Assembly: GCA_965204375.1 (NCBI GenBank)
Contig: OZ241986.1
Span: 5,664,001 to 5,728,000, forward strand
Direction of reading: 5' to 3'
Length of the DNA stretch: 64,000 bases
Origin: Candidatus Latescibacterota bacterium
Lineage (GTDB): Bacteria; Latescibacterota; UBA2968
Within the stretch, counting starts at the first letter, position 1; each line of letters begins with the position of its first letter. The notes below the pieces were generated by a model. That model did not search any database. It had not been told where the DNA came from and worked only from the letters and a program-made list of their open reading frames with translations. This document shows, in pieces, positions 10,248-56,322 of the stretch. Both the position numbers and the translations under genes were made by a program.

Positions 10248-11011
10248 ATGGTTACGCTTCCTGAAATTTTGGCCTCTGAAATAGACGAAATTGCCGAATA
10301 TTTGACCAATCTATTTGGTAATGCAGCCAATTGAGTAAACACTTATTTCAGTCCAGAAAGGTTGGTCAAGCAGCCCCGTAATATTGAACCTCTCCCTGAG
10401 GAAAGAAGACAACTATCCAGCTATCGAACTCGTATAGGAACTATGCTGGAGTATGCGTTGAGTACGGAGGCAGTGCATTTGCTCAAAGAGAGATATGATG
10501 ATCAGTACTTTTTGACATTTTCTGTCGCACATGAATACCCTGATTTCTATTTCGCGATCAGGCATTGTCTATTTTGTTGCGGATAGAAATGAAAGCGGTT
10601 GACGCTGACTCTGATGAACAGGCGGCACGCTTCAGTACGCCAACGGTACAGATCAATTCTGAAGAAGATTTACTTTTGCTAATAGGTTGGGAGTGGCGGA
10701 GTTTAATACGAAGGGAAAAAATAATCGGTGAATACCCTCACATTTTTGCCTGCTGCATCATTCCTGCTGGTGAAATTGCACAGGAGCGTGATATTCGGTT
10801 AGAAAAAACGGATGGTAAAATTGAAGGTGAGCAAGTATATGTTTATAGCACCCAAAAAAGAGAATATGTACCTGATCCGGGAAATTATGGAAAGTTATGG
10901 AGAATTATTCACACATCGCGTCGGGATCCGGATATATTGAGCAAATCTATGAAGGATTTTTTGCAATTTCTAAAAGAAATTGATGATCGTTCAAATAGAA
11001 ATCGCCTTTGA
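10248..11011 (+). pseudogene. Inactivated PD-(D/E)xK restriction endonuclease-like gene
   Basis: ATG 10248, in-frame TGA 10332-10334, frameshift near 10550; the repaired frame reads YPDFY.RDQALSILLRIEMKAV; AT-rich; convergent with the MTase. Confidence 0.7.
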
Positions 11012-11023
11012 AACGGATCTGAT

Positions 11024-13300
11024 TCAATTTTTATTCGGACACAGGTTCTCTCGAATATGCGCTTCTGCTGTTTTGAGCGTTTCCTCGCCTTCCTCTAAAA
11101 TCATTCTGCTTCTTTCGCGGCAATTGATAAAATGTTTCCAGGCCATTTTGTATGTTGCGACAATTTCGTGTTGAACAGATAAAGGGGGAAGTGGAATTTT
11201 CAGGCTCAGAATAGCAGATTGATTGACGCGAGGTCTTCCAACGCCAGTAATTTGATATACAATTTGACCAAAAATAATATCACTTCGCAATAAGAAGGCG
11301 AGGTATTCTTTGTCAATTTGCCATTTTGTTTTTGGCAATATTTTTGAGGCTTCTTCTCCTAAGTCTGGATCGTCTATCGCGCTTTCAAGAGTGCAAAATA
11401 TCAAGCATTCGGAAGAAGCAAATCCTTCATTTTCATCATCTCGAATTAGAACGCATTTACGCAATTCAGGCCGCAATTTGGAAAAAAGGATATCTCCCTC
11501 ACGGTACAGGCGGACATTACTTTTTATTTGTCTTCCCAGCATTTGAGACACTGTATATTCTCCTTTATCCGGAACTATGTTCGCAAGCCCGACATAGTTC
11601 CAAATTTCGTCGGGGTCTTGCTTGGCGGGAATGGCTGTTATATTACGCGTAATGACAAGCTCTGCTAATTTGGGTGTGGGATAAATAGAACGGTTGAGTA
11701 TTTCTTCCGCAATTTTACGAGAAGGATGGTGAAATGGAACATCTAGCCTGATTCCTTGCTCCGTATTTTTAAATTGATCGGGAGAACATATAAATATCTT
11801 TGGAGCTAAATGCGTAAGTGCCTGTTCTCCATGTGCGAGATAGTTGATCCAATTTTTCAAAATAAAGGGCAGTTCATCCTGCATCTCAGGTTGTCCGTTA
11901 TCATCTCGATGTTCTGCATATAGTGGGTCTCCATTGGATTTCCGTCCCACATGCTCTGCGTGTGCCATAAAAATAGGAGGCTGAGGTTCATTGACATCCT
12001 GTTTTTTATGCAAAAAAAGTATGGATGCTTTTGCTGTTGCATATGGCATGAACGTCACATCTGGCAAACTTACTACTGCCTCAATAATAGATTGATGCAA
12101 GATTAACTGACGTACATCCGTATTGGTTTTGCCATTTAGAATACTGTCATCAATAACAATGCCCAGTCGTCCGCCAGGTTTCAGCCAATTCAGACAGCGT
12201 TCAATAAAAAGAGCACCTCTACGTCTGGAAGTTTTATTTTTTCCAAGCTCGTACTGAGATAGAGAAGTTAGATCGGAAAAATCACTTCCAAAAGGCGGAT
12301 TGGTTAAAATCAAATCTATGCTGTTGGGTGGGACAATTTCGTTTAAATGATCTGAAAAAGCGAGTGACCCACCATCCCTGAGATGATAAATCGTTCCTCG
12401 CCCATCTCCATGCATGAGAAGGTTCATTTGTGCAGTCCAGGCCATTCTTCTGTCAATTTCCAGCCCAATCAATTGGGAATTATTCTCTCTATGCTTTCTC
12501 ATGTAGGAAGTGGTTTCAATGAGAAAACCACCGCTTCCGCAGGCAGGATCACAGATTACTTGATCCGGACGAGGTTTCATAAATTCAACCATGAAGTGGA
12601 CAACTTGACGGGGAGTAAAGAATTGTTGATTGTCGGATTTATCAAAGGTGTTCCGAATCAATTCTTCATATACAACTCCTTTTATATCCTCTGAAAGGTT
12701 ATAAAGCTGTATGTCTTGTAACAATTCAACTACTGTCACAATAGCCTTTTTGTCATCACTCAATTCTCGGTGTCCATTAGTGAACACATCGGGTAGTTTT
12801 TCAATGGCTTGACGGTAAAGCAAGGTTATTCTTTCATAGGTTTCCGCAATAGATTCTCCTGGAATCTGCAAGAAAGATGTCGTATTGCGATTGGATGATA
12901 AACTTTTTCGTTCATCATAAAGTTTACAGTACAACAATTTAGAAATTTCTTCAAAGCGTTCTAGCAAACCGCCCCCCATAGAGTCTCGAAAAGCACTGCT
13001 CATTTGGCGAATCAGCAGGCGAAAGGCACGGATATCTAACTGTGGGGGTGTAGGGGAAATGGGGAAAAGCGTAGGTTGAATGACTGATGGGGTAACTGTT
13101 GGCATTCGAGTTTGATAGACCGTTCCTTGTTCACGCACAAGTTCCATCATTCGGTCCAGTGAATAAAGACGATAGCCATTTATTGGATGCCGTTCAGCGA
13201 TGAGTTTTCCCGATTTATCCCAATTGCGGAGGGTCGTAGAAGTAACGCCAAGAAGCTTCGCCGCTTCTTTTATTGTGAAGTATTCTGATTGTTTATTCAT
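11024..13300 (-). CDS. N6-adenine DNA methyltransferase with N-terminal MerR-like HTH and C-terminal HsdS-like TRD
   Basis: FTIKEAAKLLGVTSTTLRNWD; QFFTP, DPACGSGGF, NPPF; GDILFSKLRP. Confidence 0.92.
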   Translation of the reverse strand: MNKQSEYFTIKEAAKLLGVTSTTLRNWDKSGKLIAERHPINGYRLYSLDRMMELVREQGTVYQTRMPTVTPSVIQPTLFPISPTPPQLDIRAFRLLIRQMSSAFRDSMGGGLLERFEEISKLLYCKLYDERKSLSSNRNTTSFLQIPGESIAETYERITLLYRQAIEKLPDVFTNGHRELSDDKKAIVTVVELLQDIQLYNLSEDIKGVVYEELIRNTFDKSDNQQFFTPRQVVHFMVEFMKPRPDQVICDPACGSGGFLIETTSYMRKHRENNSQLIGLEIDRRMAWTAQMNLLMHGDGRGTIYHLRDGGSLAFSDHLNEIVPPNSIDLILTNPPFGSDFSDLTSLSQYELGKNKTSRRRGALFIERCLNWLKPGGRLGIVIDDSILNGKTNTDVRQLILHQSIIEAVVSLPDVTFMPYATAKASILFLHKKQDVNEPQPPIFMAHAEHVGRKSNGDPLYAEHRDDNGQPEMQDELPFILKNWINYLAHGEQALTHLAPKIFICSPDQFKNTEQGIRLDVPFHHPSRKIAEEILNRSIYPTPKLAELVITRNITAIPAKQDPDEIWNYVGLANIVPDKGEYTVSQMLGRQIKSNVRLYREGDILFSKLRPELRKCVLIRDDENEGFASSECLIFCTLESAIDDPDLGEEASKILPKTKWQIDKEYLAFLLRSDIIFGQIVYQITGVGRPRVNQSAILSLKIPLPPLSVQHEIVATYKMAWKHFINCRERSRMILEEGEETLKTAEAHIRENLCPNKN

Positions 13301-13356
13301 AGAAAAATCTTTTAGTGTTTTGTAAGGTTTGAACATTATAAAAATGATGTTTGTTT

Positions 13357-13384
13357 AGTATAGCGTATTTTATACGAGTGTCAA
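13357..13384 (-). promoter_or_regulatory. sigma70-like promoter for the MTase
   Basis: TTGACA-N16-TATACT on the minus strand. Confidence 0.5.
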
Positions 13385-13455
13385 GCAAATTTACCGAGTT
13401 TTTTAATTCCGGCGTAACTATTTAGGTCATTTGAATGATGAAGAAAAAAGATGCT

Positions 13456-13509
13456 GTAGGAGCGGCATCCTTGCCGCGATTAAGGCCGGGAAAGGGATTT
13501 CCCTCCTAC
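13456..13509. repeat. GTAG-type REP-like palindrome
   Basis: GTAGGAG...CTCCTAC ends with inner GCGGCA/TGCCGC stem. Confidence 0.65.
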
Positions 13510-13585
13510 GCGACCGCAAGAACCTAAATAATTACATTCCGGCTTTGTCCAGAAATGGACTATGCTCTGAAAATGATCCTTTATA

Positions 13586-13601
13586 TGGCACGGTATTTGC
13601 A
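13586..13601 (+). promoter_or_regulatory. sigma54 -24/-12 promoter
   Basis: TGGCAC-GGTAT-TTGCA, about 110 nt upstream of the CDS at 13710. Confidence 0.7.
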
Positions 13602-13709
13602 GAAGTGACATAGTGCCAAATATGAGTCGTTTTTTGGTCATTTTGAGATCGTTTTTTTCAATCAGAAGGACAATTTTTTCACTCACACACTGTGGAGGAG
13701 TTTTGAGAT

Positions 13710-14798
13710 ATGAAATTGACGCTTTCAATTCCGCGTTCTCGTCCGGCGCATCTGGCGAGTTTTTCCGCTCCAGAGGGATGTGAGGCGCCGCTGTTGCAGT
13801 TGAAGGGGAGAGGTGAGGTGCTGATTGCCGAACGCGATCCTTCTGCGCCTGTTTATCACGTGAATCTGCCCGCGCTGGCCGGGGGTGAGGAAGCGAGTTT
13901 TGAGGTGTTGGCATTGGATAGTGCAGATGCGGCTGCGGGGATTTCGTCGCGCGATGCCGATGGGAAACTCAGTGTTTCTCTGGCGAGTTCGCCATTTATG
14001 ACGTTTCACCATACGACGGATTATCCCAAGCCGGTTATCAATCCGATTTTGACGCCGAATGGGACCAATATGTTGCGCGAGCCGATGGCGGCGTGGGGGG
14101 AGGGTGAACACCCCTGGCAGCGGGGGTTGACCTTGATGCAGGGGGCTATAAATGGGGTGGATTGCTGGAATGAGCGGCCCAACCAACCGGGATATGGGCG
14201 CACGGCGCAGGATGATATTTCTATTTCGCACAATCCATTGTCTCTTGTGATCGCTTCTGAAAATACGTGGTATGAAGGCGACCGCGCGCTGATGAGTGAT
14301 AGTCGTTTGTATCGATTGTACGATTCGGGGCGGGATGCCGCGGTTCTGGATATTGCGCTGACGCTCAAGGCTTCTCACGGTGCGGTGACAATTGGGGATA
14401 CGAAGGAGGGTGGATTTTTGTGCATTCGCGTGAATCCGTCGATGAATGCCAATGCCGATGGAGAGATGCGCAATGCCTATGGTGCGACGGATGAGACGGG
14501 GTGCTGGTCGTTGCCTTCTCACTGGATGGATTACTACGGTCCGGTGGGCGATGAGGTGGCCGGGTTTGCCATTTTTGATCATCCGCAGAATTTCCGATAT
14601 CCTACCACATGGCATGTGCGCGGTTATGGTTTGTTTGCGCCCAATTGCTGGATGTTCAAGCCAGACCACCTTATGCCCGATGGCGAGTCTATGACGTTTC
14701 GCTGGCGCGTGATTGTGCATACGGGGGATACGGCGCAGGCCGATATTGCAAATCGCTTTTTGGATTATGTGGATGGGTCGCGTGTGGTATGGGAATAG
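13710..14798 (+). CDS. PmoA-like/DUF6807 family protein (function unknown, often near sugar catabolism genes)
   Basis: EHPWQRGL, GDTKEGG, WMDYYG, DHPQN..YPTTWHVRGYGLFAPN. Confidence 0.8.
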   Translation: MKLTLSIPRSRPAHLASFSAPEGCEAPLLQLKGRGEVLIAERDPSAPVYHVNLPALAGGEEASFEVLALDSADAAAGISSRDADGKLSVSLASSPFMTFHHTTDYPKPVINPILTPNGTNMLREPMAAWGEGEHPWQRGLTLMQGAINGVDCWNERPNQPGYGRTAQDDISISHNPLSLVIASENTWYEGDRALMSDSRLYRLYDSGRDAAVLDIALTLKASHGAVTIGDTKEGGFLCIRVNPSMNANADGEMRNAYGATDETGCWSLPSHWMDYYGPVGDEVAGFAIFDHPQNFRYPTTWHVRGYGLFAPNCWMFKPDHLMPDGESMTFRWRVIVHTGDTAQADIANRFLDYVDGSRVVWE

Positions 14799-48405: not shown

Positions 48406-48789
48406 ATGAGCGTGGTGCAGCAGCGGGGAATCTATTGCGTCCTCGCTTGTTTTTTGTTCGCTTCTTCTTTGGGTGTGGAAAGCCTCCTTATTCGTCTGGT
48501 CAATGGTCTGAGGCTGGAGGTGAGTTTGGATTATCGGCGATCATTGGGGAGCGTAAAATTGCGGTCGCGAGTGCGCAGTTTTACGGGGTTTACAGATCGG
48601 CATGTGGTGTCTTTAGAGAATTATAATTCACTCGCTTTTCCATTGGTTGGCGCGTTGAGTTTGTCTGTGCAGCAGAGCAATTTTTTGTATCGGGTCAATA
48701 AAATTCGCAATACGCCTGTTGATGGCATTGCCAATCGGTGGGATCTGACACTCGGTTTGGTTTATGATTTGGGGTGGAAGTGGTATTGA
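48406..48789 (+). pseudogene. Probable truncated or internally deleted outer-membrane protein gene
   Basis: Signal-like N-terminus joined to a few beta-strands with aromatic end; preceded by the orphan tail KDITLDELALESLAKEGA*. Confidence 0.4.
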
Positions 48790-48820: not shown

Positions 48821-49108
48821 TCAAACAAGCTCAAACTTGCGAACCTTTATGTCGCTTGTTTTTGTTTGTATCTGGGCCAAGTCATAGTTTATTTGCTGAC
48901 GCAACCAGCTTTCTGCACTGCCGCCAAAAGCCTTCGAGAGACGTACTGCCATTTCCGTGGAAATGCCATTGTGTCCGTGAATCAGCCGAGATAAACTCGT
49001 GCGAGTTACACCCAATCCTTCGGCAGCTTCTGTAATGGACAGGCCAAGCGGCTCAAGACATTCTTCCAGAATAAATTTACCGGGATGAGGAGGATTCTTC
49101 ATGGGCAT
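48821..49108 (-). CDS. higA: HigA antitoxin
   Basis: [23 protein letters not shown]. Confidence 0.93.
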
Positions 49109-49120
49109 GATATTCTCCTT

Positions 49121-49399
49121 CTAATGATAGTCTTCATAATTGACATCGGCTACATCTGATTGTTCAAAGCGGAAGGTGACGCGCCAGTTTGCACGCACTG
49201 TGATGGCCCATAAGCCAGATCGATTTCCTCTGAGTGGGTGTAAACGAAAACCGGGAAAATTCATATCTACTGGACTTTCGGCGACTTCAAGACGTGCCAA
49301 GATATTTTTAAGTTTACTCACATGTTCCGGATTCACACCACGCGAGTCATCTCTTTTATAGAGTCGTCTCAATCCCCGATGTCTAAAATTCAATATCAA
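49121..49399 (-). CDS. higB: HigB/RelE-like toxin
   Basis: FRHRGL, LHPLRG, VRANWRVTFRF, DYH. Confidence 0.93.
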   Translation of the reverse strand: MILNFRHRGLRRLYKRDDSRGVNPEHVSKLKNILARLEVAESPVDMNFPGFRLHPLRGNRSGLWAITVRANWRVTFRFEQSDVADVNYEDYH

Positions 49400-49495: not shown

Positions 49496-50779
49496 ATGGC
49501 GTTCCCTATGTCAAAACCGAAAAAAGATAGACGACCTGTTGCTGGCGCGTTGATGGTGGGATTTGCGGCGAGTTTTTTGTTGTGTGGCTATGAGTTTGTG
49601 CGGAGTGTATCCACGTCGTTGTTTATTGGGGCGTATGGGGCGCACAATTTGCCTTTTGTCATGACGCTGGCTCCTGTGGGTACATTTGGTATGGTTTGGA
49701 TGTATGGGGTGTTGTTGTCGCGGTTTGGGTCGCGGCAGACTTTGTTTTTGACGTCGGTGCTTTCGGGTGGGGGTATTCTGGTGTGTTACGGGGGGATTTT
49801 ATCTGGTTTTCATCCGGCGGTCGGGGTGTTATATGTGCTGCGCGAAGCGTATATTGTGCTGATTATTGAGCAGTACTGGTCGTTTATCAATAGTGTTTTG
49901 CGAGATGATCAGGGGCGAAAGTACAATGGTCCGATCTGCGGTATTGCGTCGGTGGGAGCGATTTGTGGGGGTTTGATTGTAGGGCAAACGGCGAAGGTGA
50001 TAGGCAGTGAACATCTGCTGATTTTTGCAGGATTATCGCTTTTGCCAGCAGCAGTTCTGGCGTGGTGGGCGTATGGTTTGGGGGGTGTGCCGGTTCAGGA
50101 GCCGGAAAAGCGAGGCAAGCTGGCGTTGGGTTTGTTTCGGGATATTCCGACTTTGCGCTATCTCGCAGGATTGATTTTTGTGACGCAGATGGTGTCGGCG
50201 GTGCTGGATCTGCGGTTCAGTGGGCTGGTGGAGACGGCTCTTCCGATGCAGGACGAACGCACCGCGTATTTTGGGCATTTTTATGCGTTGTTGAATGCCT
50301 GTGCATTTGTGTTTCAGTTTGGCGTTGCACCCCTTTTGCTGCATTTTGTGTCGTTGCGAACCGCCCATCTCGGTATTCCGGTGATTCATCTGCTAACGTG
50401 TGGGGTGTTGTTGGCATATCCCACTCTCACTACTGGCGCACTGGCTTATCTGGTGTTTAAGACGCTGGATTATTCGGTGTTTCGGGCGGCAAAAGAGTTG
50501 CTCTATATTCCGCTTTCATTTGATGCGAGGTACCGAGCAAAAGAAGTGATTGATGCTTTTGGTTATCGCGCGTCAAAGGGGATGACTTCGGGGTTGATTG
50601 CACTGGCGGGGACTATTTCTTACAGGGTTTTCAATATTGGGCGGTTGCCGGGATCAGTATATCCGCTTGTCGCATTGGGCGCGCTGGGCGTATGGAGTTG
50701 GCTCGCGTGGGCAATTACAAGGTCGGAGGATGATAGGGGCCGGCGGCTACGGGTTTCAGAGGAAGTTGCCGATTTTTAG
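49496..50779 (+). CDS. TLC/NTT (Npt1/2-like) MFS transporter
   Basis: About 12 TM; LDYSVFRAAKELLYIPL, RYRAKEVID. Confidence 0.82.
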   Translation: MAFPMSKPKKDRRPVAGALMVGFAASFLLCGYEFVRSVSTSLFIGAYGAHNLPFVMTLAPVGTFGMVWMYGVLLSRFGSRQTLFLTSVLSGGGILVCYGGILSGFHPAVGVLYVLREAYIVLIIEQYWSFINSVLRDDQGRKYNGPICGIASVGAICGGLIVGQTAKVIGSEHLLIFAGLSLLPAAVLAWWAYGLGGVPVQEPEKRGKLALGLFRDIPTLRYLAGLIFVTQMVSAVLDLRFSGLVETALPMQDERTAYFGHFYALLNACAFVFQFGVAPLLLHFVSLRTAHLGIPVIHLLTCGVLLAYPTLTTGALAYLVFKTLDYSVFRAAKELLYIPLSFDARYRAKEVIDAFGYRASKGMTSGLIALAGTISYRVFNIGRLPGSVYPLVALGALGVWSWLAWAITRSEDDRGRRLRVSEEVADF

Positions 50780-50787
50780 ATGAGTGC

Positions 50788-50816
50788 TTGACACAATATA
50801 CCAAAACCTCTATTTT
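50788..50816 (+). promoter_or_regulatory. sigma70 promoter of the ileS leader
   Basis: TTGACA-N17-TATTTT. Confidence 0.6.
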
Positions 50817-50846
50817 TAACCGCGCTGATAGGAAAAGGATGAAAAT

Positions 50847-50984
50847 ATGAATACAACCCGTCAAACATCCCCACAACTGAGAAAGGGTCCTGCCCAGGTG
50901 ACAGGTTATCTGACACCGGGCAGTGCCATTGGGGTTATACGTATATATGCCGCGAAGACGCTTGTGGGGTGTTGTTTGTCGTAA
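50847..50984 (+). CDS. Putative ileS leader peptide (45 aa)
   Basis: AAGGA RBS; ...AIGVIRIY... with Ile codons ATT, ATA, ATA at 50928-50945. Confidence 0.6.
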   Translation: MNTTRQTSPQLRKGPAQVTGYLTPGSAIGVIRIYAAKTLVGCCLS

Positions 50985-51007
50985 GCTATATACTTTTTGT
51001 GTGACAC

Positions 51008-51040
51008 ACCGCCAGGGCGTTTGCCGTGGCGGTTTTTTTT
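51008..51040 (+). terminator. Attenuator terminator upstream of ileS
   Basis: ACCGCCAGGGC-GTTT-GCCGTGGCGGT followed by a T-run. Confidence 0.8.
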
Positions 51041-51139
51041 GCAGTAATTTGGGGCGGCATTTAACCTGATGGGTGGTGGGGTTGATGTATCCTGATCATC
51101 CTTTCATCCTGCCCATCCTGATTCTGATAGGAGTTTTTA

Positions 51140-54100
51140 ATGTTTGAGAAAGTAGATACAAATGTGAATTTTCCCAAAGAGGAAGAAAAGGTGCTCGCTT
51201 TTTGGGATGAGATCAGAGCGTTTGAAAAATCGCTCGAGATCAGAAAGAATAACGACGAATACGTTTTTTACGATGGGCCGCCTTTTGCGACGGGTTTGCC
51301 GCACTATGGACACTTGCTGGCTGGGACGATTAAAGATGTGATCCCGCGCTATCAAACTATGAACGGCAAATACGTAGATCGCGTCTTTGGATGGGACTGT
51401 CACGGCTTGCCCGTAGAATACGAACTCAGCCAAGAACTGGGCTTGAATAGCAAAAGTGAGATTGAGGAATACGGGATTGCGGAATACAACGAGGCATGCC
51501 GGGATATTGTTTTGCGTTATACTGCCGAGTGGCGACAATTTGTCAAGCGCATTGGGCGCTGGGTGGATTTTGAAAATGGGTATCGCACGATGGACCGCGA
51601 TTACATGGAGTCCATCTGGTGGGTGTTCAAACAACTCTGGGACAAAGGCTTGATTTACGAGGGGCACAAAATTTTGCCTTATTGTCCCCGGGATGCAACA
51701 CCTTTGTCCAATTTTGAAGCCAATCAGGGTTATGAGTCTGTGCAGGATCCGGCTATTACCGTTGCTTTCAAGCTTAAAGATGAACCGGATACGTATCTTC
51801 TGGCGTGGACGACAACGCCCTGGACATTGCCGTCAAATCTGGCAATGACTGTGCATGAAGATGTGGATTATGTGTATGTCAAAGATGAGGATGTGACGTA
51901 CGTTCTCGCTGAGGCGCGTGTGGATACCTATTATCCCTCGGGCAGGCCCGAGATCGTCAAGACCGTAAAGGGGAAGGAACTTCTCGGTCTGCAATACGAA
52001 CCGCTTTTTCCCTATTTTGAAGATTTGCGTGCGGAAGGGGCGTTTCGCATTATTACAGCCGAGTTTGTGACTACTGCAGAAGGGACGGGTATTGTCCACA
52101 CGGCACCTGGATTTGGCGAAGACGATGCCGAAGCCGGTCGCGTTCACGGTGTTCCGGCTGTTTGTCCGATTGATGCCGAATGCCGTTTTACGTCTGAGGT
52201 ACGTGATTATGAAGGGCGTTTTGTCAAGGACTGTGATAGCGATATTGTGAATCGGTTAAAGGAAGAGGGTAAACTCGTACATCAATCCACACATCACCAC
52301 AGTTATCCCCACTGCTGGCGGTGTGAGGCGCCCCTTATTTACAGGGCGATTTCGACGTGGTTTGTCAATATTGAGAAGATTAAAGACAATATGCTCCGTG
52401 CAAACGCGCAGATCCACTGGGTGCCCGAACACATCAAAGCAGGGCGTTTTGGCAATTGGCTGGAAAATGCGCGGGATTGGGCGATTTCCCGCAATCGCTA
52501 TTGGGGTTGCCCGCTTCCCCTGTGGCGAAATGAAGAGACGGGTGAGACTGTGTGTGTTGGCTCTATCGGCGAACTCGAAGATCGCACGGGGGGAAAGTTT
52601 GACGATATCCACAAGCATTTTATGGATCCGGTTATTATTGAGGGTGAAACGGGGCCATTGACCCGCGTGCCCGAGGTGCTCGATTGCTGGTTTGAGAGCG
52701 GTTCTATGCCTTATGCACAACGCCATTATCCGTTTGAAAACAAGGAGTGGCTGGACGCGCATTTTCCGGCGGATTTTATTGCCGAGGGATTGGATCAGAC
52801 ACGGGGCTGGTTTTACACGCTTGTGGTGCTCGGTGCTGCTCTTTTTGACCGTCCGCCGTTCGAGAATGTCGTGGTCAATGGTATGATCCTGGCGGAAGAT
52901 GGGCGCAAAATGTCCAAGCGGTTGAAGAATTATCCCGATCCGATGCATATTATGGATACTTATGGTGCCGACGCGCTGCGTCTCAATATGTTGTCTTCTC
53001 CTGTGGTGCGCGGGGAAGATCTCGCGTTTTCGGAACAGGGGGTTCAAAAGACGATGCGCAGTGTGCTGCTGCCCTTGTGGAATGCGTATAGTTTTCTGGT
53101 GACTTATGCGAGGGTTGATAACTGGCAGCCCACGTCGAATCGGTCAGATCATCCGCTTGACCGCTGGATTCGCGCGCGTTTAAATCATCTGGTGCGCGAT
53201 ATTCGACAGGGTCTGGATCGCTGTCATTTGCAAACAGCAGCTACGCGATTTGCAACATTTATCGACGATATGACCAATTGGTATATCCGACGCAGCCGGC
53301 GGCGGTTCTGGAAGAGCGATAATGATAGCGATAAATTGTCTGCCTATGCGACGCTCTACCATGTGCTCTTGACGCTGGTCAAAGCGCTGGCGCCTTTTGC
53401 GCCGTTTATTACGGAGACTATCTACCGGAATTTGCGCGCGAGCGATATGCCGGAGTCCGTTCATTTGTGCGATTATCCCGATGTGATCGAAGCCGATCTC
53501 GATGAGAAACTCGAGCAGCAGATGGCGCACACGCGGACAGCGGTCGGGTTGGGCAGGTTCTTGCGCAGTCAGGCCAATGTCAGGACCCGACATCCTTTGC
53601 GTGCGGTGATTATCGTGTCTATGCAGGAGGATGTGCGCGAAGACCTCAGGGCGTTACAGGATATTGTCGCGGATGAGTTAAATGTGAAAGAGGTGGATAT
53701 TCGCGACGATGAAGAGGCAGTGGTGACGCTTTCTGCAAAAGCCAATTTCAGAGTGCTGGGGCCGCGTTTGGGCAAAAATATGAAGGTGGCTGCGGAGAAG
53801 ATTGCGGGTCTCGACTTTGAGGAAATCCAATCTCTGCGCGAAGGTCACGCGCTGACGTTGGATCTGGATGGTGCGGAGCCTTTAGAAATCACGGTGGATG
53901 ATATTTTGATCCAGCGAGAAGAGAAAGAAGATATGCCTGTGGCCAATGAAGGCGATATTACGGTGGCGCTGGATTTATATAGGGATGAAAATTTAGTACA
54001 CGAAGGTCTGGCGCGTGAGATTGTCCATGTGATTCAAAATATCCGCAAGGAGAAGGGGATGGATGTGTCAGATCGGATTGTGGTGACGTATATGGATAAT

Positions 54101-54253
54101 GGCAATTCTCTGGCACCTGCTTTCGATCAGTTTCGGGACTATATCATGGGTGAGACGCTCTGTACGACATTGGTTCGCGCAGATGAGGTAGATGGCGATG
54201 CGGTTGATATAGAGGGTCACACGGTGATGTTTGAGATTAAAGTTGAGGGATAA
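51140..54253 (+). CDS. ileS: Isoleucyl-tRNA synthetase (type 2, archaeal/eukaryote-like)
   Basis: DGPPFATGLPHYGH, GWDCHGLP, WTTTPWTLP, KMSKR. Confidence 0.97.
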   Translation: MFEKVDTNVNFPKEEEKVLAFWDEIRAFEKSLEIRKNNDEYVFYDGPPFATGLPHYGHLLAGTIKDVIPRYQTMNGKYVDRVFGWDCHGLPVEYELSQELGLNSKSEIEEYGIAEYNEACRDIVLRYTAEWRQFVKRIGRWVDFENGYRTMDRDYMESIWWVFKQLWDKGLIYEGHKILPYCPRDATPLSNFEANQGYESVQDPAITVAFKLKDEPDTYLLAWTTTPWTLPSNLAMTVHEDVDYVYVKDEDVTYVLAEARVDTYYPSGRPEIVKTVKGKELLGLQYEPLFPYFEDLRAEGAFRIITAEFVTTAEGTGIVHTAPGFGEDDAEAGRVHGVPAVCPIDAECRFTSEVRDYEGRFVKDCDSDIVNRLKEEGKLVHQSTHHHSYPHCWRCEAPLIYRAISTWFVNIEKIKDNMLRANAQIHWVPEHIKAGRFGNWLENARDWAISRNRYWGCPLPLWRNEETGETVCVGSIGELEDRTGGKFDDIHKHFMDPVIIEGETGPLTRVPEVLDCWFESGSMPYAQRHYPFENKEWLDAHFPADFIAEGLDQTRGWFYTLVVLGAALFDRPPFENVVVNGMILAEDGRKMSKRLKNYPDPMHIMDTYGADALRLNMLSSPVVRGEDLAFSEQGVQKTMRSVLLPLWNAYSFLVTYARVDNWQPTSNRSDHPLDRWIRARLNHLVRDIRQGLDRCHLQTAATRFATFIDDMTNWYIRRSRRRFWKSDNDSDKLSAYATLYHVLLTLVKALAPFAPFITETIYRNLRASDMPESVHLCDYPDVIEADLDEKLEQQMAHTRTAVGLGRFLRSQANVRTRHPLRAVIIVSMQEDVREDLRALQDIVADELNVKEVDIRDDEEAVVTLSAKANFRVLGPRLGKNMKVAAEKIAGLDFEEIQSLREGHALTLDLDGAEPLEITVDDILIQREEKEDMPVANEGDITVALDLYRDENLVHEGLAREIVHVIQNIRKEKGMDVSDRIVVTYMDNGNSLAPAFDQFRDYIMGETLCTTLVRADEVDGDAVDIEGHTVMFEIKVEG

Positions 54254-55179: not shown

Positions 55180-56322
55180 TTAATAGAACACATGCAATTG
55201 AAACGCATAGCGCGATGAGCGAAAGGTTTCTGTGTCGAGGATGCGATATTCAGGGCGCAGTTCAATTTGCGGTGTTAGAAAAATTTGCATGCCAAATACA
55301 GCCTGCCGTGTTATCAAATCAATAGCGCGTGCTGATGCGCGGATATGCGTTACTTCGCCGGTTTCCCCCCGTGCGAACAAGAGCAGTCCAGGTATTGCTT
55401 GAAGCGTGATATCAAGCGAAGCGGTTTTTGCCTCGCGCATACCTTCCTTATCGGATAGGACATATTCGGCCATGAGAGCAATTTTGTCCTGCAATCCGAC
55501 GCCCGCAAAGAGGTTGGTCATCAAAAAATCGCCGTTTTTGAGCCACGACCCTCCCAGATAAAAGTTCATTCTTTGTTCGACCAATTTGGGCCACAATACG
55601 ATACGCCCCAGGAATGAGGGTTTATCGCGGTTTTCGATCAAGGAGGCGTCTTGTACGGTGTTTTCAGAGAGTGCGCGGGCAGAATAAATGCCTGCGGTTA
55701 GCGATAGCCACAGTTTTTTGTAATAGTGTACTTCTGCGCCGTATTCTGCGTAATTGGGCGCGATTAGCGATGTGGCTCCGATAACGTCGGGCGTTTGGCG
55801 TACGAGCATGGTGTGGTCGTCATACCGCATGCCAATGGTTGGCTGAAAATGCCCTATGCGCAGTGCGGGCCAGTTGTAATTGGGTTGATATATTGCCGAT
55901 GCTGTCCACGCGCGCTGTCCCGCGTATTTTTCGGGTCCAAAATTATAAGAGCCTTCGATTTTCAGGGCATTTGAGGGGCGGACAACACTGTATAGTGCGA
56001 CTTGCATTGGGAATACTTTGCGCTCGGCTTCTGGCGATGTATGTGATCGCGCCATTTGTCCTCGGATATCCGCACCCATCAGGATCAAGCCATCGGCATA
56101 AGCGGTTTTGCCCGGTAAGACGTAATTGGGTGCGAGCAATCCCACGCCGTCCATTGAGTACTGCCCCAATTCGTCTCGCTGCGCCCCGCCCTGCGCGGTG
56201 ATGTGACAGTTCACACACCGGTTGGCCGTGAGCAATGCAAACTGCGAGAGGGCATCCGCCTGCCCGATCCATCCCAGCAGGATTAATAACCCCAATAATC
56301 TAAAATACGCAGTATTGGTCAT
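55180..56322 (-). CDS. Monoheme cytochrome-porin fusion (Cyc2-like architecture)
   Basis: Signal peptide, then QFALLTANRCVNCH; beta-barrel ending FQLHVFY. Confidence 0.7.
   Translation of the reverse strand: MTNTAYFRLLGLLILLGWIGQADALSQFALLTANRCVNCHITAQGGAQRDELGQYSMDGVGLLAPNYVLPGKTAYADGLILMGADIRGQMARSHTSPEAERKVFPMQVALYSVVRPSNALKIEGSYNFGPEKYAGQRAWTASAIYQPNYNWPALRIGHFQPTIGMRYDDHTMLVRQTPDVIGATSLIAPNYAEYGAEVHYYKKLWLSLTAGIYSARALSENTVQDASLIENRDKPSFLGRIVLWPKLVEQRMNFYLGGSWLKNGDFLMTNLFAGVGLQDKIALMAEYVLSDKEGMREAKTASLDITLQAIPGLLLFARGETGEVTHIRASARAIDLITRQAVFGMQIFLTPQIELRPEYRILDTETFRSSRYAFQLHVFY

Follow-up and report, generated by a model that had tools for sequence, protein, structure and literature searches.

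The DNA analyzed here (the window) is a stretch of 64,000 nt from Candidatus Latescibacterota bacterium (assembly GCA_965204375.1, contig OZ241986.1, positions 5,664,001-5,728,000, forward strand); ileS and the leader features preceding it lie on the plus strand. The ileS gene (51140..54253) encodes a type 2 isoleucyl-tRNA synthetase (IleRS) that matches TIGR00392 above cut-off and carries the HYGH and KMSKR motifs, with the MupA and MupB models scoring below cut-off against the same product. It is preceded by a Shine-Dalgarno sequence, AGGAG (51129-51133), in which GGAG is invariant, and forms a single-gene unit in the window, as the next ORF is located on the opposite strand; no tRNA genes were found in the window or in five orthologue loci. 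Upstream of ileS lie a sigma-70-type promoter, a short leader ORF with clustered Ile codons, and an intrinsic terminator.

Relatives of ileS were obtained by scanning a genome collection with the IleRS sequence, which returned at least 80 loci from 600 candidate stretches; among the matches listed were five Ca. Latescibacterota loci (L001, L002, L003, L015, and L018; 82-96% IleRS identity), and the remaining matches listed came mainly from Lentisphaerota and Spirochaetota (46-68% IleRS identity). A sequence-only reading of the window had placed a promoter ahead of the leader ORF, and TTGACA-17-TATTTT (50788..50816) indeed matches the consensus at 10 of 12 positions in the window as well as in all five orthologues; this promoter is kept in the six sequences, with an invariant -35 element, despite four different upstream genes. 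The spacer from the terminator to ileS (51041..51139) is unconserved, and the distance between the terminator U-run and ileS ranges from ~76 to 243 nt in the relatives. A separate promoter downstream of the terminator would speak against control of ileS by the leader; no conserved promoter was found between the terminator and ileS among the six sequences, one of which has a weak 9/12 match.

The spacer also shows some features of its own. In the window, 51068-51125 holds short tandem-like repeats and a hairpin, different repeats occur in L018 (5800-5990), and no convincing further copies of the window's repeat motif were seen elsewhere in the window. A 15-nt inverted repeat (50836-50850 / 51096-51110) joins the ribosome-binding site of the leader to the spacer and could turn off leader translation after read-through, though the spacer is not conserved.

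The leader ORF and its isoleucine codons

The leader ORF (50847..50984, with the stop codon TAA at 50982) has 45 codons, and 42-46 in the relatives; a Shine-Dalgarno-like AAGGA (50835..50839) is located 7 nt before its ATG, and AGGA or AGGG is found 6-7 nt upstream of the start in five of the six sequences, the site being weak in L018. As had been read from the window, the only Ile codons of this ORF are three that cluster at 50928..50945 in the arrangement Ile-x-x-Ile-x-Ile, namely ATT at 50928 (Ile1), ATA at 50937 (Ile2), and ATA at 50943 (Ile3). On the window alone this cluster is within chance, as 42 of 597 short ORFs have three Ile within six codons; it becomes significant because it is conserved in the relatives. 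A three-codon mini-ORF (50839-50850; Met-Lys-Ile, with Ile encoded by ATA) ends in a stop codon that overlaps the leader start; comparable mini-ORFs of 2-3 codons are present in L001, L018, and L002 and absent from L015 and L003.

Comparison with the related genomes, which the sequence-only reading had called for, identified the promoter, the ORF, the Ile codons, the stop position, and the terminator in all five Latescibacterota ileS loci. ATT/ATA/ATA is identical in 18 of 18 codons across the six DNA sequences, with L002 adding a fourth Ile codon, ATA. Of the six reading frames, only that of the leader is free of internal stops in all six sequences, the leader of L002 carries an in-frame 9-nt deletion, and the stop codon swaps between TAA and TGA at one alignment column. 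Column-permutation nulls with six sequences gave modest values, as the frame stayed open in 646 of 5000 permutations and three Ile were kept in 212 of 5000. A coding signature from synonymous changes was considered and rejected, since peptide change is about neutral (10 synonymous versus 34 non-synonymous variants) and variable columns are distributed 14/19/14 over the codon positions; absence of amino-acid selection on the peptide itself fits the expectation for a leader peptide, and the peptide has no Pfam match.

A broader family came from searching protein sequences with the leader alignment, which yielded 27 of 30 candidates, 4 among 50% representatives, and 32 of 306 in a second round; after P0029 (a 930-aa repeat protein) and P0033 (E = 5.9) had been removed as chance matches, 37 distinct leader peptides were retained, of which 31 come from databases and are known without genomic context, their link to ileS being assumed. 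Ile occupies control positions 1, 4, and 6 in 37, 36, and 31 of the 37 peptides, respectively, and every control window holds at least two Ile, while 8 and 9 different residues occur at the two positions that follow the first Ile. Outside the control window, Ile is nearly absent (3 of 1421 residues), and the first Ile is separated from the stop by 18 codons in all 37 peptides. First-round matches scored 62-112 bits, so far above the cut-off that loss of an Ile would not have kept such peptides out of the search results. The most distant peptides retain Ile1 and Ile2 and tend to lose Ile3, a pattern that matches the prediction of the ribosome-placement simulation described below.

Exclusive helices and the position of the ribosome

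Folding of the whole window leader gave z = -2.9, a fold matched in quality by 1 of 200 shuffles. Downstream of the Ile codons, three mutually exclusive helices (terminator, antiterminator, and protector) can form; the covariation and shuffle counts given for them come from six related sequences, with thin covariation and with shuffles that ignore phylogeny, and are to be read as support and not as proof. The names "protector" and "pause hairpin" follow the papers cited. The intrinsic terminator (51008..51040), as proposed from the window sequence, consists of arms at 51008-51018/51023-51033 followed by 8 T and is GC-rich with a 6-bp invariant core; a terminator hairpin of -15 to -21 kcal/mol with a U-run is found in all six sequences (96.6% of cells paired). 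A consensus terminator scanner listed it neither in the window nor in any of the five orthologues, probably due to the interrupted stem; folding and pair counts support the terminator.

The 5' strand of the antiterminator (50949..50976) pairs with 51003-51030 and thus covers both terminator arms. This helix has energies of -22.5 to -40.5 kcal/mol; for each of the six sequences, 0-6 of 500 shuffles reach such an energy. Of its cells, 93.1% are paired, with two-sided change in 3 of 24 pairs. The antiterminator had been sought in a shorter segment, and 50958-50980:51000-51022 does pair at -19.5 kcal/mol; the true helix extends further (50949-50976:51003-51030). The protector (anti-antiterminator) helix was absent from that first description. 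Its 5' strand (50941..50950) begins on and overlaps the Ile3 codon and its 3' strand (50985..50993) is located just after the leader stop, so that it encloses the antiterminator strand; 3 of 9 pairs show two-sided change, including one from A-U to C-G, and a duplex as strong arises in 0-22 of 500 shuffles per sequence.

An alternative partner for the antiterminator strand, segment A (50862..50876), had also been put forward, and this segment pairs with 50962-50978 in ribosome-free window RNA. The fold itself was reproduced (50858-50880:50955-50980, -19.8 kcal/mol in the window), but the pairing beats shuffles in only three of six sequences (strong pairing being confined to the window, L001, and L002), with one two-sided change; being weaker than the helix after the leader stop, it was rejected as the main protector, which it probably is not. 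Part of segment A (50869-50873) may instead pair with 50930-50934, a helix in which 2 pairs show two-sided changes. As a further small structure, a palindromic hairpin (50936-50947) that shows a single two-sided change, in L003 and L002, spans Ile2 and Ile3; it is in competition with the protector, and the antiterminator can form alongside it.

Upstream of the Ile codons, the further hairpin that had been noticed inside the leader ORF (hairpin B, 50886..50927) folds at -25.6 kcal/mol and is near-invariant; 96.9% of its cells are paired, 13 of its 16 pairs never vary, and covariation is absent. Hairpin B is 89-100% identical while the 4-fold sites of ileS fall to 32%, although its loop is variable. 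We regard it as a candidate RNA polymerase pause hairpin. A candidate pause site that follows the consensus G-10 Y-1 G+1 (taken from the portions of PMC9291695 available) lies at 50931..50941, which puts its 3' end (50940) 13 nt downstream of the base of hairpin B; YG is present in 6/6 sequences and the full consensus in 5/6, and the motif is not unique, as it recurs at four sites further downstream. The 3' strand of hairpin B (50911-50917) resembles the 5' flank of the terminator (51002-51010; direct repeat D3) and could also pair with the antiterminator strand.

The effect of translation on these helices was simulated by placing a ribosome on each codon, with a coverage of +12 or +16, and folding the RNA. 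With +12 coverage and folding of downstream RNA only, all six sequences gave a low terminator probability when Ile2 occupied the A site (0.00-0.04) and a high one when the ribosome stood at the stop (0.73-0.97). Termination was least at or near Ile1/Ile2, but only if RNA behind the ribosome was excluded. At the same coverage, a ribosome at Ile1 gave read-through in four of six sequences and termination of 0.86-0.90 in the window and L018; +16 coverage moved read-through upstream, with termination at Ile2 of 0.86-0.93 in the window and L018 and of 0.57 in L002. When pairing across the ribosome was allowed, the window and L015 terminated with a probability of 0.97 wherever the ribosome stood; because helices across the ribosome keep these two sequences terminated, steric exclusion or ribosome queuing must be assumed. 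In co-transcriptional folding, the 5' arm of the terminator was captured by upstream RNA (~0.8) with the A site at or before 50952 and was mostly free of capture (0-0.49) with the A site from 50964 on. For RNA freed from 50946, the antiterminator is the lower-energy state in 6/6 sequences, by 0.7-12.8 kcal/mol; this holds in 3/6 for RNA freed from 50928 and in 2/6 for RNA freed from 50952. Without a ribosome, five of the six RNAs are in the terminated state; the exception, L001, has a terminator probability of 0.15 and prefers the antiterminator. With a ribosome upstream of Ile2, nearly every position leads to read-through in L001 and L003.

The promoter, the ORF, the Ile codons, their fixed spacing, and the three exclusive helices all emerge from comparison of the sequences, and we consider it very probable that together they constitute a classical, clade-restricted, trp-type ribosome-mediated transcription attenuator through which a shortage of Ile-tRNA increases ileS transcription. 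The amino acid enriched in the leader is the substrate of the downstream enzyme (Ile and IleRS). Translation, pausing, stalling, and the regulatory output would proceed as follows. RNA polymerase would start near 50823 and probably pause just past hairpin B, until a ribosome that has loaded on the leader ORF melts this hairpin and releases the polymerase; judged from coordinates, the paths from the candidate pause would be comparable, with ~84 nt for the ribosome and ~94 nt for the polymerase. With ample Ile-tRNA, the ribosome would reach codons 39-45 and the stop and cover the 5' strand of the antiterminator, which would let the terminator form; after its release, or without translation, the protector or segment A is computed to hold the antiterminator strand off the terminator. 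With scarce Ile-tRNA, the ribosome would stall at Ile1 or Ile2, with Ile3 at the edge, block the protector, and leave 50949-50976 free; this segment is predicted by folding to pair with both terminator arms, and the polymerase would then read into ileS. Part of the invariance of Ile2 and Ile3 may be due to structure, as both codons overlap helices. The proposal, made initially from the window alone, that ileS is subject to Ile-tRNA-sensing attenuation is thus supported by the computations, with the leader ORF and Ile codons conserved, a strong T-box match wanting, and no conserved promoter separating the terminator from ileS.

Other readings of the conserved leader

Antibiotic-induced attenuation is known for an auxiliary TrpRS in Streptomyces. 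The leader described here could be a translation-coupled attenuator that senses a cue other than Ile-tRNA, through an LTPGSAI arrest peptide or a general slowing of translation (e.g., by an antibiotic), with the Ile codons kept for RNA pairing. Such a reading would accommodate the residues L22, T23, G25, S26, and I28, which are invariant even in the most distant peptides, the stronger conservation of the 3' strand of hairpin B relative to its 5' strand, an ORF that is long for a leader, and the assignment of IleRS2 as the mupirocin-resistant type (PMC10485003, in the passages available). We nevertheless judge it unlikely, since the third codon positions in the LTPGSAI stretch are also invariant and the substitutions P24L, G20D, Q17R, and V18A sit at hairpin loop, bulge, G-U-compatible, or single-mismatch positions, which together point to RNA constraint in this stretch, and since overall peptide change is about neutral and extra Ile codons have been gained within the control window (5 of 33) and rarely outside it.

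ThrRS of E. coli binds its own leader, and IleRS or another RNA-binding protein might similarly act on hairpin B and shift the balance between terminator and antiterminator, with the ORF incidental or auxiliary. The sequence of hairpin B is conserved beyond the needs of pairing, without covariation, and RNA-binding proteins often regulate their own genes (as stated in the accessible part of PMC2965389). This possibility appears very unlikely, however, as the loop, the expected site of an anticodon mimic, is variable and contains no conserved Ile anticodon, as hairpin B overlaps neither switch helix, and as the conserved start, the open frame, the stop swaps, the Ile pattern, and the fixed 18-codon spacing would all be left unexplained.

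That the locus holds no regulated switch at all, and only a constitutive partial terminator or a small RNA together with a chance ORF, would agree with the frequency of Ile clusters among short ORFs (42/597) and with the about neutral change of the peptide, but is highly improbable given that the ORF, the Ile pattern, the spacing, and the three exclusive helices are jointly conserved while flanks and upstream genes change. Finally, there is a next to negligible chance that uncharged tRNA-Ile is bound directly by a degenerate T-box riboswitch, although T-box control is more widespread for ileS than for any other gene in the accounts available from PMC2494555 and PMC1262725 and the surroundings of hairpin B contain short AG-rich and GGUG motifs: the Rfam search proposed in the sequence-only reading gave no T-box match at gathering score or at E <= 10 (no match to any family at gathering score over the whole window, and four chance matches only at E <= 10 in 50700-51250); the UGGN bulge, which pairs with tRNA NCCA in the T-box antiterminator (UGGN-ACC; a feature as described in part of PMC2494555), is absent from all six sequences; and no conserved Ile specifier codon is present in a stem I loop, as the lone candidate, ATC near the variable hairpin loop (50908-50910), is missing from L002 and from those peptides in which position 21 holds a different residue.

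Relation to known attenuators, distribution, and codon choice

We thus regard the ileS leader as a real, conserved, and most probably working Ile-tRNA attenuator, with a new target gene and a new phylum for a known kind of switch. In a comparative study of synthetase attenuators published in 2010, ileS is reportedly not among the genes listed. Leader-peptide attenuators have been described for the trp, his, leu, thr, ilv, and phe operons as well as for pheST, leuS, trpS, alaS, thrS, and hisS paralogues (parts of PMC1183508, PMC1262725, PMC8079986, PMC2965389, PMC3766115, and PMC2659441), and ileS has been described with T-boxes (parts of PMC1262725 and PMC2494555). No leader-peptide attenuator of ileS, or any in Latescibacterota, was encountered in the full-text literature searched, which covers few subscription journals; the supplement of PMC2965389 may contain an earlier example.

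With the attenuators of trp, his, leu, thr, ilvGMEDA, and pheA in E. coli and Salmonella, as outlined in the available portion of PMC1183508, the ileS leader shares an ORF with cognate control codons, protector, antiterminator, and terminator helices, a stop codon that covers the antiterminator strand, and ribosome-free RNA that is terminated (here in five of six sequences). Its geometry matches the trp I:II/II:III/III:IV scheme of the same source, with the protector enclosing the antiterminator strand as trp I:II does; no match to the Rfam Trp, His, Leu, or Thr leader families was obtained for the ileS leader. By contrast, its ORF has 42-46 codons versus 14 for trp, and, compared with the enteric attenuators in the accounts at hand, it has a likely pause hairpin distinct from the protector, an antiterminator that engages both arms of the terminator, Ile as the only amino acid sensed, and a synthetase gene as its target in place of a biosynthetic operon. 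A synthetase gene behind a leader rich in its own amino acid is also found for pheST, for Streptomyces leuS, trpS, alaS, and thrS, and for Bacillus hisS paralogues, and replacement of a T-box by a leader peptide has been documented for hisS (both from sections of PMC1262725, PMC8079986, and PMC2965389); compared with these synthetase attenuators as described there, the ileS leader has a target unnamed among them, belongs to a new phylum, and uses mostly the rare ATA as control codon. With ileS T-boxes (RF00230; translational in Actinobacteria) it shares the target gene and the presumed signal, uncharged tRNA-Ile, and with those of Firmicutes also the terminator/antiterminator output, but it lacks a model match, a UGGN bulge, and a conserved specifier, and its sensor would be the translating ribosome. 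Similar-looking anatomy need not imply control, as changes of the control codons were without effect in Streptomyces ilvB (PMC1262725, in the portion available). If the attenuator acts as proposed, it would represent a third mode of ileS control, beside transcriptional and translational T-boxes, would extend leader-peptide attenuation to Ca. Latescibacterota, and would constitute an RNA family missing from Rfam.

A FastTree phylogeny was built from 66 of 81 ileS sequences (leaving out 13 short or partial sequences and 2 loci without a located start), in which the six Latescibacterota-type IleRS sequences form one branch (support 100) within Lentisphaerota/PVC sequences. The leader is absent from 73 other-phylum ileS loci with a located start, the closest outside relatives among the matches listed; these were scanned for an ORF plus terminator in the 450 nt upstream of ileS (at least 300 nt being available for 70 of them), and a short, unrelated leader peptide in other-phylum lineages is possible. 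Searches with nhmmer and a covariance model over the 81 sequences recovered only the six Latescibacterota leaders, and plasmid and phage collections gave no leader match. Among the loci listed, this distribution would fit a lineage-specific gain of the leader, which suggests that attenuators can arise anew in one lineage and bears on the question of transfer versus convergence in the spread of attenuators raised in PMC2965389 (as far as its available text goes).

The choice of control codons raises a further point. In the sequences studied here, ATA accounts for 9-17% of Ile codons in long ORFs and for 0-3 of 47-56 Ile codons in ileS, and this rare codon fills two of the three control positions. 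AUA requires lysidine-modified tRNA-Ile2, the charging of which by IleRS also needs the modification (excerpts of PMC13602947), and attenuator codon choice is believed to be guided by the sensitivity of the isoacceptors (excerpts of PMC1183508). With ATT at one position and ATA at the others, the leader would probe both of the tRNAs to be charged by IleRS; both third-position A's of the ATA codons, however, sit within helices, so that structure alone could hold ATA. We put forward only tentatively, as possible and on balance rather doubtful, that the leader is a clade-specific new attenuator which arose after uptake of a PVC-type IleRS2 and samples tRNA-Ile(GAU) through ATT and lysidine-modified tRNA-Ile2 through ATA, with ileS answering to minor-tRNA charging and anticodon modification and with hairpin B/LTPGSAI possibly as a second sensing layer. 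If this were true, the leader would be a natural in vivo reporter of TilS activity, in line with the suggestion made from the window sequence that it may report on lysidine-dependent ATA decoding; with rare ATA at two of three control codons, it offers a direct test of whether isoacceptor charging or lysidine sets the sensitivity of a natural switch.

The surroundings of ileS differ among the relatives. Directly upstream of the ileS promoter, the window holds a gene for a TLC-family (ATP/ADP-type) nucleotide transporter (49496-50779), which is paired with a nucleotidase gene in L001 and L015 and is not found upstream of ileS in L002, L003, and L018. A nucleotidase remnant (48406-48789) matches only the first 53 and last 96 residues of the 727-aa 5'-nucleotidase gene that is intact in L001 (2143-4326), which indicates that most of the gene was deleted in the window. 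Between this remnant and the transporter gene lies a HigA antitoxin and RelE/HigB-like toxin pair (48821-49399, minus strand), which looks inserted because the nucleotidase gene abuts the transporter gene in L001. In L003, a duplicated block (11001-14736) comprises two copies of the gene matching window positions 55180-56322 and two of a neighbouring gene.
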